A DNA stretch of 64,000 bases from Podospora anserina (lineage: Eukaryota): positions 6,200,001-6,264,000 of the forward strand of contig CM030332.1 of assembly GCA_017654855.1 (NCBI GenBank), in the 5' to 3' direction. Below, piece by piece: positions 5,666 through 9,888 of this stretch (its first letter is position 1; every line of letters begins with the position of its first letter). The position numbers and the translations under genes were made by a program. The notes under the pieces were generated by a model, which was not told the DNA's origin, did no database searches, and saw only the letters and a list, made by a program, of their open reading frames with translations.

Positions 5666-6423
5666 TTAAAGGCGGGAGCCATGGACGACCTTCATGTCAA
5701 CAGCCATCTCGCGGCCGTGGTCAGTGACGACGAGGACGCGGACGGAGCCACGGCCAGACTCGAAAGCCTTCTGGAGGCGGTTCCAGAGCGAAGACTGGTC
5801 AATGACGGGGAGGTTCTGCTTGACATCACCGGTCTCGGTCATGGCGACGATGGCGCCATCCTGCATGTCAAGGACGCGGTACTGCTTGAAGACGGGGCCG
5901 AGCATGGTCTGGACAACGACGCTGGGGGCGGGGTTGGAGACGAAGCTGGACTCCTCATGGAGCTGCTTGGTGAAGAGGTCAACACCGAGGTAGCGGTGCT
6001 GGCCGGTGGCAGCAGAGGTGCTGATGCGGATGACCTGGCAGGGGCGGCCCTGGAGGATCAGGATGTCACCGAGGCGGATGTGGTGGCAGGGGATGGTGAC
6101 GGTGTTGGGAGCCTTCTCAACGGCAGGGGCGGCAGCGGGGCCGCGGCGGACGGAAGAGACCTCAGCCTCGACGTGGCCTTCATGATGGTGGTGGAGCTTG
6201 TCAGCCAACTTGTGCAACTTGTTGTGGAGCTTGTTGTGAACCTCCTGGCGGAAGGAGTGGTAGCGGTCTGTGTGTTGGTGGGGCCACAGTGAGTACTCGC
6301 TCACATGTCGACACTCTCGTGTGCATGGGGAGAGATGGCATCAAGGGGCACCACCAAGACAAGACGCTAGAACAAGGGTGAAAGGGGCGGGAGATACTCA
6401 CTGTCCTCATCGTAGTAACCCAT
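5666..6423 (-). CDS. hex-1: HEX-1 Woronin body major protein (eIF5A-like fold, C-terminal PTS1 SRL), AUG-initiated form; exons 6423-6402 and 6267-5666 (207 aa), or 6177-5666 with the alternative acceptor (177 aa)
   Basis: AACAACATGG then MGYYDED, GTGAGT donor at 6401, CAG acceptor at 6270-6268; core TVTIPCHHIRLGDILILQGRPCQVIRISTSAATGQHRYLGVDLFTKQLHEESSF...DMKVVHGSRL is the recognisable HEX-1 sequence. Confidence 0.97.
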
Positions 6424-7520
6424 GTTGTTGGTGGTGGTGGTGGAAACGGTGGAAGGCGTGTAGGGCTTGTCGTCCAAGAGCTTTACCTCCTTCTTAGGGG
6501 CGGTAATGCGAGGGGGGCGGGGGAAGTCGACGGTGGTGTCGGTGACTTGGAAATGAGATTCCTTCTTGGCGGGACGGGTGATAGCAGCCTCGACAGTGAA
6601 CTTGTCACCGATGGAAGTGCTGGACTTGAAGACCGGGCGACGGGTGGGAAGGTCGACGGTGGTGTCGTAGCTGGGGGAGGCTACAACGGTGGGTTCCTTG
6701 CGGTAGTTGGCTTGGGTGCGGGCGCGGAATTCACTCTCAGCAAGGTCGACGACGGAGCTGTGAGGACGGTGGCGGTGGTCGAGTTCGATGCGAGACTCGA
6801 GGTAGTTGGAGGCGGGAGGGGGTGGTTGAGGTCTGAAGAAGGCAAAGGAAAGATGTGGTCAGCAAAAGGAAAGAGCAGAGAATGTGTCTTCCTTGAGCCA
6901 GATATTGTTGTGGGAGAAGGCCTCGCGTCGCTTGGTCAACCCCCGACCCCCTGGCCCCGAAGACCTTGGCGGTGCCCTAGGGTCGATAGCTCGGCCAGGG
7001 GGGGTGGGCTGAAGAGCGGAGCAAAACAAGACAAACGAGGAAAATGGCTGCTCTGAGGCTCCAGCGGGGAATCCACACCCAAGAGATCCGAGCCGGGACA
7101 GGAGGCTGGGGATCAGCCATTGGGGCGGGCCAGGCCAAAGGGGCGGTAAAGAAAAACAAATTGACGGTGACGGTGATGCCGGCGACAGAAAGAGAAGTCA
7201 AAAACATACCTGCGGATCTCCTCGTGGAAATGGTACTCTTCCTTCTTGATGACGGGGACGGGGACGGGACGGCGGTGCTCTTCCTCCTTGCGGGTGATGC
7301 GGACCTCCTCTTTGAAGCGGTTCTCCTCGATGACCTTGGGGGGCGGGGGGGCAGGGAGAGCGGCTTGGGCGGTGAAAGAAGAGTCTTGACCTATCCGTCC
7401 AGCTGGGGGAACTTGGATCTTGATCTCCTCGTGGGTTTTGGTCTGGGTAGCGGTCTCGGACTCCCTGTAGGCAGACGGGAAGACGCTGAAAGGGACCGGG
7501 ACGCGGGCTTCAAAGTCCAG
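5666..7520 (-). CDS. hex-1: Putative long HEX-1 isoform (~447 aa) with a 240-aa N-terminal extension; exons 7520-7210, 6832-6402, 6267-5666; candidate CUG start
   Basis: Hand translation is stop-free and in frame with MGYYDED across a canonical 377-nt intron (GTATGT at 7209, GCTGAC at 6863-6858, CAG at 6835-6833): LDFEARVPVPFSVFPSAYRE...HEEIR/RPQPPPPASNY...TTTTNN-MGYY; no Met in the extension. Confidence 0.7.
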
Positions 7521-9888
7521 GTTGCCGGTTTACTGGGCGCAAGAAACAATCTTCTTGACGTACGACAAGAAGATATCTCTTGCTAACTTCCTAGAAAAGA
7601 AGTCGAAAGAAAGGAGATGAGAAGGCGGTCTGTGAATCGACCCGTCTTCTGTGCTCTGGTTTCTGTTCGAGTCCTTTGAAAGGGAGGGCGGGGAATGGAT
7701 GGAGATGGTGGTGATGGCTTGAGCTGACTCTGAGTGGAGGATGAGGAAGGAAAGAAGATCAAGACCAGGAGGGCACAGCTGCTCGAGCGAGCGCGGTTCA
7801 AATACGCATGGGGCGGAGCGCTTCCGGGCTCTGAACGTCGACCTTGGCCGGTTGGCAGGGGACCGTCGACGACGAGAAGGATGTGTGACCACAGGGGGTG
7901 GTTCCAACCAGCTCTGGAAGCCCTCTGTTTACCTTTTGTGGAGAAGAGGCCTGCGAGTTGTTTATCCTGCACCAATGGGGGATAGCGGACCCTCTTTTCG
8001 GAGGAGCCATGGCCCCACGAGCATGTCTCTGATTGCTCGGCCGTGACCGGGAGCTGGGACGCGTCCAGCCATTTCGAGCTAGGAGCTGTCTCGTTGGGAG
8101 CTGAAAGCACAGAGCTCGATCGCGGTTGACCCCTGGAGATGAGACGTCAGAAAGAAAAAAGGCGCGCTTCTCCAGCCTCTCCAAATCCGGGGGTAGCAGA
8201 GAGCGCTTGCTGGGTGATGGGCGAGGGTTGCCCGGGCCTCCTGTAGGGCAGAACATGGACCTGGAGCGTCAATGGCTCGAACTGGTCTCTCAATTGATGA
8301 GAAGACACAAACAGAAGTCGTATCAAAGCTGTCTCTGATTGAAATTGGTCCACCCCCGTCCTCCTGCAGCTTCGTGCATCTCAGGGCGCCACCGACCACA
8401 CCCACAGGCTGACGGGAGACGGACTAGCCAGCCAGGACCGGGCGCCCACGCCGTACACACGCTTGTGCCGGCATCGTTGATAGGTGGTTGGGGACGCGGT
8501 GGGGGCTCTGGGGCCGTGGTGTGCGCAATTGGGGAGGTCGGGAGCAGCTCCCTTTTACTTTCCTCGGCTGCAAGCCAAGGAGAAGAGCAGATCACCAGCA
8601 GCTTCGTCTGACAATTGGCTGTTGCATTTATCAAGGGGGTGTCCCGTCCCAGCCTCTTTTTCCCGTCTGAGAGCTCGTGGGAGAAGGCCATTGGGTCGAT
8701 AGGGGAGTTCCAGCCATCCACGACTTGATGCACAATTTTATTCGTCTCGTTTGATGTCTCCCGGTCCTCGTATCGATGTCGCACAGGCCGGCCGGCTATC
8801 AGTTGTCAGGTTGTCATCGAAACAGATGGCATCTGCCAGACCGCCGCCGTCCCCGAGGTGTCTCCAGCGCCGTCCCCACAAAGTCGATTGCTTTTGCAGC
8901 CGGGAGCTGACACGACACGAGGCCTGAAAGTCAAAAAGCTGGACTTCCTCCCCATGCGCTACCGAGGCCATCTCCAAAATCTCCACTGGGAACAGCACAC
9001 CATTTCCAGTTGTCCCGGCAACTGACCTCCTTTTGCGTCTTCTGCTCCGCCCCTTTGCGGGATCAGCCGCCGAGCAGTCCGATCCTACCCATTAACTGCC
9101 GTCACATGCGCGATGCGAGAAGACGGAGCCGACGCAGGGGAAACAGCCGCCGTCGGGGTTTCATGAACTTTGGGACCTTGTTTACTTGCGACGTCGTCGA
9201 CATCGTCGTTTGCTCTACCTATGTTGTTCAGGCATCCGGCCGTCTGTCGACTTGAACCTGTTGAGAGTTGTCTGATCAGTTCAACAACCCGTTAACCCGA
9301 CCCGAAAACCAACCCGAGCAGGAACCAGGGAATCGCTGTCCTGGGTCCTGTCAATGCGTCCGCCGACCGATGACCCGGATCCGAATTCACAATCAGTCCC
9401 CCGGGGCACCTGTGCCGGAAGAGACGAGGAAATAAACTTTGGATCTGGAGTCCGGGCTGACTTCAACCTGCTATGGTAAGTTTGTGATATGGGCGTTCCG
9501 GACCATCGATCGATTTCGATTCAAAATTGGGAAATTGGACAAACTAAGCATATGCACGATGGCGTTTCTGGCTTGATCATGGCGGATTGGTGGCTCTCCA
9601 TGCTGCAACCGCAAGCTGGAGATCTCGAGCCCAAAGAGCTGGAGATTCAACTAAACAACCTCATTCCCGTTGAGTGTCAGGATTTAACTTTTGACGGCTG
9701 CACACCCCCGGTTGGTGGCTTAATCATGACCGAGGGGGCTGCCATGGGTCTCAACAGACCGCTGTCCGCAGCATAGCGTAAAGGTACGAATTGTAGCACC
9801 ATCGTAACAACTTTTCCACTACTTCAATTGATCATTTTTGGTCTCGTGTGTTGTCTTGTCTGAATATTCCTGTATACGTTCAGCACCA

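Follow-up and report, generated by a model that had tools for sequence, protein, structure and literature searches.

A probable CUG-initiated long form of the Woronin body protein HEX-1 in Podospora anserina

HEX-1 is the crystal protein that plugs fungal septal pores, and it has been studied as a protein of approximately 19 kDa. In the window analyzed here, a stretch of 64,000 nucleotides of Podospora anserina contig CM030332.1 to which all coordinates refer, hex-1 lies on the minus strand, and the frame of its AUG (6423) remains open for 240 Met-free codons further upstream. This raises the question of whether the upstream frame is translated, from which codon, and how the short protein would then be produced. 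An earlier note, made from the letters of the window alone, had proposed that a single hex-1 mRNA carries two starts, a CUG at 7520 for a long isoform and the canonical AUG, reached by leaky scanning, for short HEX-1. This proposal is supported, with an estimated probability of about 0.84; the refutation tests that could be run (splice junction, start context, selection and AUG depletion) favour it.

The observation behind the proposal was confirmed, and the open frame, intron, stop codon and CUG context are all present on the minus strand. An in-frame TAA (7532-7530) is followed by ACC GGC AAC CTG GAC, in which the CTG (7520-7518), the putative initiation codon, has A at -3, G at +4 and G at -6. 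The open frame runs through 7529-7210 (320 nt), crosses an intron of 377 nt (7209-6833; GTATGT at its start, a branch-like CTGAC and CAG at its end), continues through 6832-6424 (409 nt) and enters the ATG at 6423, which opens the sequence MGYYDED (6423-6402). Before this ATG there are 243 codons counted from the TAA and 240 from the CTG, and none of them encodes Met. Extension exon 1 (7520-7210) supplies codons 1-103 plus 2 nt, and the upstream part of exon 2 (6832-6424) a further 136 codons. At third codon positions the extension frame has a G+C content of 0.75, which lies between the values of the two remaining frames (0.61 and 0.47) and that of the HEX-1 core (0.84). Antisense open frames had also been cited in favour of coding; they exist (6382-7056 and 6990-7586) but are uninformative as evidence.

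Contigs of four sequencing runs (X1, X2, X9 and X13) from four studies were used to examine splicing. The joint 6832/7210 was present in contigs of X2, X9 and X13, while X1 had loose ends at 6835 and 7210 with letters matching the far side of this junction. The joint of the following intron, 6176/6401, was found in all four runs. The contigs lack both introns and are hence RNA-derived, so that the predicted intron 7209-6833 is real, and both the exon-intron structure and the upstream exon were seen directly in spliced RNA. Coverage extended over 7210-7740 (X2, X13) and 7210-7724 (X9), which delimits a 5' leader of about 220 nt (7740-7521) that is free of ATG and includes the in-frame TAA. The earlier note had placed the transcription start near 7750-7800; the contigs stop near 7740 instead, and these ends (7740, 7724) were taken as a weak hint of the 5' end only, contig depth not being used to rank isoforms. 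No further joint was seen among the contigs of the four runs, and with it no AUG-bearing exon spliced into the extension downstream of the TAA.

The start codon was investigated in other genomes by scanning metagenome contigs with an alignment of extension exon 1, using the peptide pattern DF[DE]AR[VF]P[IV]P, from which the codon of the preceding Leu is absent. The scan matched 271 stretches, 236 of which were confirmed, and 80 of these (L001-L080) were examined. At the Leu position the codon was CTG in 78 loci and ATG in two, and the other five Leu codons did not occur in any of the 80. Position -3 was A in 78/78 CTG loci and T in both ATG loci, position -6 was G in 78/80, and position +4 was G in 80/80. 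The interval from the upstream in-frame stop to the Leu codon contained an ATG in frame in 0/80 loci. Collapsing at 97% identity left 57 distinct loci (CTG 56, ATG 1), and in 24 of them an in-frame stop lies just 4-5 codons upstream of the Leu codon. The AAC-CTG-G start context, predicted to be invariant, proved near-invariant across the 80 loci. As a control, several synonymous codons are in use at the invariant residues nearby (four each for Ala and Arg, three for Val, 3-4 for Pro and five for Ser), CTG accounts for 12.8% of 406 other Leu codons in the same open reading frames (ORFs), and six other conserved Leu columns use two to four codons each.

The nucleotide profile around this codon was random upstream of -12 and conserved from -11 to -1, including the third codon positions -4 (0.95) and -7 (0.96), with the second codon position -5 free. 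Downstream of the CTG variation was confined to third positions, and this third-position variation starts exactly at the CTG. Such a break would be expected where a start context gives way to coding sequence. The two ATG loci (L022 and L023) read TAT ATG GAT, and in L023 the next ATG is that of MGYY, 1110 nt downstream with an intron in between. Based on these sequences, the AUG-start variants appear to combine a weak context with a retained AUG desert. Conservation beyond -3 and +4 was seen at A-11, G-9, T-8, C-7, G-6, C-4, A-3 and A-2 (L001-L080; window 7509-7531). The Phe codon after Asp was TTT in 57/57 distinct loci, while TTC dominates elsewhere, and a weakly conserved box resembling YTCTCGCGCC was noted about 15-25 nt upstream of the CTG. 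When 26 sequences were folded to a consensus over -30 to +66, the energy was -2.06 kcal/mol, with four pairs, none of them covarying. Structure-assisted initiation at the CUG was therefore unsupported, no hairpin accounting for the extended nucleotide conservation.

The second line of evidence is the absence of ATG. In the window the spliced sequence from 7806 to 6424 (1006 nt) contains no ATG; the nearest upstream one is at 7809, and the only two of the pre-mRNA leader (7207 and 7120) both lie inside the intron 7209-6833. The gap is as the earlier note had described it, but the figure of about 15 expected ATGs holds for uniform composition only (15.7) and overstated the case: the expectation was 8.5 at the real composition and 2.9 under a first-order Markov model, and a codon shuffle of the window extension gave 0.6 expected out-of-frame ATGs. 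The gap becomes significant because it is replicated in other species. Among the metagenome contigs 28, of which 23 are distinct, are intron-less, and in 17 contigs a single ORF opens at the CTG, includes MGYY and closes with an SRL-type stop (391-571 aa). The 23 distinct contigs together with the spliced window gave 24 distinct sequences with extensions of 194-327 codons. These 24 extensions have neither a Met codon nor an ATG in any frame, against 53.1 expected from a codon shuffle excluding Met and 68.8 from the first-order Markov model, and the 5' leaders of the same sequences (147-307 nt) hold one ATG in 5117 nt. AUG depletion, one of the predictions made from the window, is thus universal in this sample. 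The MGYY ATG, which in the window reads AAC AUG G, has A at -3 in 21/24 sequences and G at +4 in 24/24. An AUG desert ending in a strong MGYY context is the outcome expected if selection favours leaky scanning to the first AUG.

Selection on the extension was measured as the ratio of nonsynonymous to synonymous substitution (dN/dS). Among the 168 of 227 extension pairs with dS < 1.5 the pairwise value had a median of 0.41, compared with a core median of 0.12, so that the extension frame is under purifying selection, as had been predicted. Conserved blocks comprise an N-terminal motif, given as (M/L)DFEARVPVPFSVFPSAYR at the start of exon 1, followed by GREGQ, EEVRITREEE..RP, IDVAEREYRSR.QP.YREE, repeats of the (E)TVDPPR type and, at the junction with the core, K-MGYYDEDG. 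In the window the IDVAEREYRSR-type block and the T-V-D-x-P-R repeats are encoded by 6832-6424. The second half of the extension has a variable number of short repeats of the form (E)E-V-R-[IV]-x-E-x-T-V-D-P-P-R, represented in the window (6424-6700) by TTVDLPTRRP, FTVEAAITRP and TTVDFPRPP; the copy number varies widely between lineages, as does the length of the extension within the range given above. Pfam gave no domain in the extension. A PDB profile search gave no match for exon 1 and chance matches only for exon 2 (E >= 0.15), and the ESM Atlas offered no usable match. An AlphaFold2 model of a 441-aa long form (contig L029, alignment of 22 rows) had a predicted local distance difference test score (pLDDT) below 50 over most of the extension, except for a helix at the IDVAEREYRSR-type block and another in an insert specific to L029. 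We read the extension as a probable disordered arm with short conserved motifs.

Protein databases already contain the extension. A word-indexed search with extension exon 2 led to P0001, a Triangularia setosa model of 471 aa named "Woronin body major protein", at 93% identity. An ATG exon further upstream supplies residues 1-31 of P0001, and the homologous frame of the window has no ATG. HMMER with extension exon 1 retrieved 61 cluster representatives, and in 52 of 62 proteins (these 61 and P0001) the full motif could be anchored. The similarity starts abruptly at x-N-L-D-F-[DE]-A-R-V-P-[VI]-P-F-S, residues further upstream being unrelated. The residue before L is N in 35, K in 9, T in 4 and I in 3 of the 52, which are chemically unlike but all have codons beginning with A, and the residue two before L is V, A, G or E in 51/52, all with codons beginning with G. 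Met stands at or next to the L position in P0035 (MDFDAK, a cluster of 33 members) and P0038 (MQDFDAR). The motif NLDFDARVPIPFSVFPS, which the earlier note had ascribed to long models of the Aspergillus type, is real and was found in these protein relatives.

A second protein search gave 158 long models, of which 120 were viewed. In 117 of these the full motif is present after 4-282 modelled residues (median 32) with no shared start, and of the remaining three, P0001 and P0207 splice an AUG-bearing exon into the motif. One Trichoderma harzianum model begins MDFEARV, which may reflect either an ATG or a CTG-started coding sequence, and other Trichoderma models read through N-L-D-F. P0203 belongs to the models having Met at or beside the CUG position. 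Met inside the extension was found in 3/103 models, in stretches resembling a translated retained intron. The extension occurs in four classes of Pezizomycotina, judging from the named sources: Sordariomycetes (Sordariales, Hypocreales, Xylariales, Glomerellales and Magnaporthales, as well as a Sordaria sp.), Dothideomycetes (Alternaria, Cercospora), Leotiomycetes (Hymenoscyphus) and Eurotiomycetes (Penicillium expansum). Several database names call the protein a "precursor".

The core of the gene product was identified as HEX-1 by Pfam matches to PF21485 (E 1.1e-07) and PF01287 (E 6.7e-07) at 5669-6175, corresponding to an eIF-5A-like two-domain core, and by a match to PDB 1khi, Hex1 (E 2.4e-94). 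The core exon with its stop codon occupies 6177-5666 and ends in ...HGSRL, with SRL as a type 1 peroxisomal targeting signal (PTS1) of the S/A-R/S-L form. The high identity to crystallized HEX-1 suggests that this protein likewise self-assembles into the Woronin body crystal. Every chain among the solved Hex1 structures found has 176-218 residues. The intron that separates MGYYDED from SHVEAEV (6401-6178, 224 nt) gives a short form of 177 aa, and since RNA contigs use this intron as the major form, the acceptor 6268/6267 assumed in the earlier note was set aside. That proximal acceptor, for which none of the four runs showed a joint, would add a His-rich segment (NRYHSF...HHHH) and give a short form of 207 aa; it is used in T. 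setosa P0001 and in several contigs of other fungi. It follows that the main long form would have 417 aa, the length of about 447 aa first proposed applying only with the alternative acceptor. An X1 contig of low depth (6172-6359) resembles a retained intron.

Based on the evidence above, the following model is proposed. The hex-1 mRNA would carry about 940 nt without AUG upstream of the known start, most of which would be coding. A fraction of scanning ribosomes would initiate at the CUG (7520), which lies in a near-optimal context conserved at the nucleotide level; reportedly, no other near-cognate codon in Neurospora is as efficient as CUG, though CUG is still well below AUG. The product would be a long HEX-1 consisting of a mostly disordered extension of 240 residues, the complete crystal-forming core and PTS1. 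Ribosomes passing the CUG would meet no AUG in any frame before the AUG at 6423 with its strong context, from which the abundant 177-aa HEX-1 would be made by leaky scanning. The comparative data argue strongly that the extension is translated, that the CUG is its start and that ribosomes come to the downstream AUG by scanning. The long form may be a minor product that is imported through PTS1 and joins HEX-1 assemblies with its extension exposed.

Three other explanations were considered. The extension might be translated from the CUG, with short HEX-1 arising either from a second, shorter transcript that begins internally or by cleavage of a long precursor. Such an origin is improbable, although the accessible text of Tang et al. 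2020 (PMC7559983) mentions cleavage of Hex-1 in N. crassa with the mature length undetermined, the database name "precursor" fits, and an internal transcription start is compatible with the contig data. Unless ribosomes have to scan as far as the MGYY AUG, it is difficult to account for the complete lack of ATG from the 24 distinct extensions, where 53-69 would be expected. The MGYY AUG does not vary and has a strong context, and the natural ATG variant weakens its own context through T at -3. Cleavage or a second promoter as an additional route to short HEX-1 would leave the desert unexplained. It is very improbable that the region serves as an untranslated 5' leader, kept for a role at the RNA level such as mRNA localisation or stability, with an open frame that is only incidental. 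Judged from the window by itself, the open frame and the lack of ATG are indeed only modestly improbable, but from the CTG onward there is third-position periodicity with synonymous variation at invariant residues, the dN/dS value points to a protein, the frame has stayed open in 24 lineages despite many indels, and the fold at the start gave no conserved RNA structure.

Many public models assume that the extension is translated from an ordinary AUG in an upstream exon spliced in downstream of the TAA, and we consider this very unlikely as well. In its favour, Met precedes the full motif in the 117 viewed models, P0001 and P0207 splice an AUG exon into the motif, and low-depth contigs of X1 and X2 extend upstream of 7740. 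The residues that the models place before the L are unrelated to each other and have no common start, the window frame homologous to the first exon of T. setosa lacks an ATG, and the joint such an exon would create did not appear in the RNA contigs. Moreover, none of the 80 loci has an in-frame ATG after the stop, and the leaders of the 23 distinct intron-less contigs are ATG-free but for one ATG. Initiation at the CUG with leaky scanning to the AUG accordingly stands as the preferred explanation.

A number of points weigh against it. Translation of the extension is something that we infer from sequence. The four runs were labelled as RNA by guess only, though the spliced joints show RNA origin, and contig depth can neither apportion isoforms nor exclude a second, downstream transcription start. 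The low-depth contigs of X1 (7600-8397) and X2 (7711-8600) reach into upstream sequence with ATGs at 7809, 8010, 8024, 8072, 8256 and 8379; they could represent a minor upstream start, read-through or carry-over of DNA. The ATG gap in the window taken alone is near chance, a borderline case that is suggestive and not significant. The 80 loci are a part of the 236 confirmed and are phylogenetically related to each other. The divergent protein P0057 reads I-W-P-D-F-N-C-Q, with W-P replacing N-L and neither Leu nor CUG at the start position, and may use another near-cognate codon. Finally, AlphaFold gave the N-terminal motif no confident fold and no docking on the core, and it is silent on function.

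Animal FGF2, MYC and PTEN-L provide examples of long isoforms started at a CUG, the AUG further downstream being reached by leaky scanning, and non-AUG peroxisomal isoforms of fungal 6-phosphogluconate dehydrogenase have reportedly been described. The likeness to hex-1 lies in one mRNA with a weak non-AUG and a strong AUG start giving products with differing N-termini. Both HEX-1 forms would keep the same C-terminal signal, so that, unlike in those systems, the extension would not be needed for peroxisomal targeting, and a further difference is that the partner product is a self-crystallizing structural protein. Mechanistically, hex-1 would add a new and prominent gene to a kind already known, and the comparative support for this is strong.

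The closest fungal parallel is cpc-1 of Neurospora crassa, for which non-AUG N-terminal extensions were reported by Ivanov et al. 2017 (mBio, PMC5487733). According to the accessible text of that paper, the cpc-1 extension likewise occurs across Pezizomycotina, in frame and upstream of the annotated AUG, has conserved near-cognate codons with A at -3 and G at +4, and is under purifying selection (0.285 vs 0.41 for hex-1). The two genes differ in that cpc-1 uses several near-cognate codons and involves an interplay with AUG upstream ORFs, whereas hex-1 has a single invariant CUG, no upstream ORFs and, unlike cpc-1, an AUG-free stretch of about 0.9-1.2 kb. The main text of Ivanov et al. 2017, supplements aside, does not mention hex-1. 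In the accessible text of Vangalis et al. 2020 (PMC7762394) two HEX-1/HexA isoforms are attributed to alternative use of 3' splice sites in the intron that follows MGYYD, and long N-terminal extensions in databases are regarded as probable annotation errors. Those isoforms resemble the ones proposed here in coming from the same gene and in having different N-termini with a common core and PTS1, and the same alternative acceptor occurs at 6268/6267. They differ from each other by about 20-30 residues and both start with MGYYD, whereas the CUG form would add about 240 residues through another codon. Tang et al. 2020 (PMC7559983) surveyed 460 Hex1 proteins, of which 235 (51%) had 405-534 aa, and in its accessible text left the mature length to be determined while taking a 392-aa model as the Metarhizium protein. 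These long GenBank models contain the same extension but start at arbitrary upstream ATGs, and the accessible text makes no reference to a CUG start, an AUG desert or a two-start logic. In the literature on Woronin bodies in connection with non-AUG, CUG or leaky scanning, supplements and subscription papers aside, no description of a CUG start of hex-1 was found.

If the two-start proposal is true, a second conserved product of about 46-50 kDa, a rough value calculated from length, would bring a component not yet studied into the assembly of Woronin bodies. The lengths of Hex1 models in databases, bimodal and inconsistent over hundreds of entries, would also find an explanation, a spread that is read as errors in the accessible text of PMC7762394 and as unexplained variation in that of PMC7559983. 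The rule for annotation would be to start at the CTG of AAY-CTG-GAY-TTT. The hex-1 transcript would further be an unusually clean natural dual-start mRNA with an AUG desert of about 1 kb kept across four fungal classes, and the natural CTG-to-ATG variants, by weakening their own context, add to its value as an example.

A wider role for the long isoform, as an ancient and functionally distinct Woronin body component across Pezizomycotina, is possible but rather doubtful. The core of the long form would co-assemble with short HEX-1, and the arm of 240 residues, which could not fit the lattice, would mark or cap the crystal surface. This arm would consist of the invariant motif MDF[ED]ARVP[VI]PFSxFPSxY, the helix of the IDVAEREYRSR type and the variable T-V-D-P-P-R repeats. 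The ratio of CUG to AUG initiation might then set crystal properties, namely nucleation, crystal size or coupling to a membrane, a tether or the septal pore, and would shift under conditions that alter how stringently start codons are selected.

Among the long models, one of 991 aa from Podospora australis (P0115) joins long hex-1 to a peptidase C1 / bleomycin hydrolase-like protein; two neighbouring genes have probably been combined in this model.

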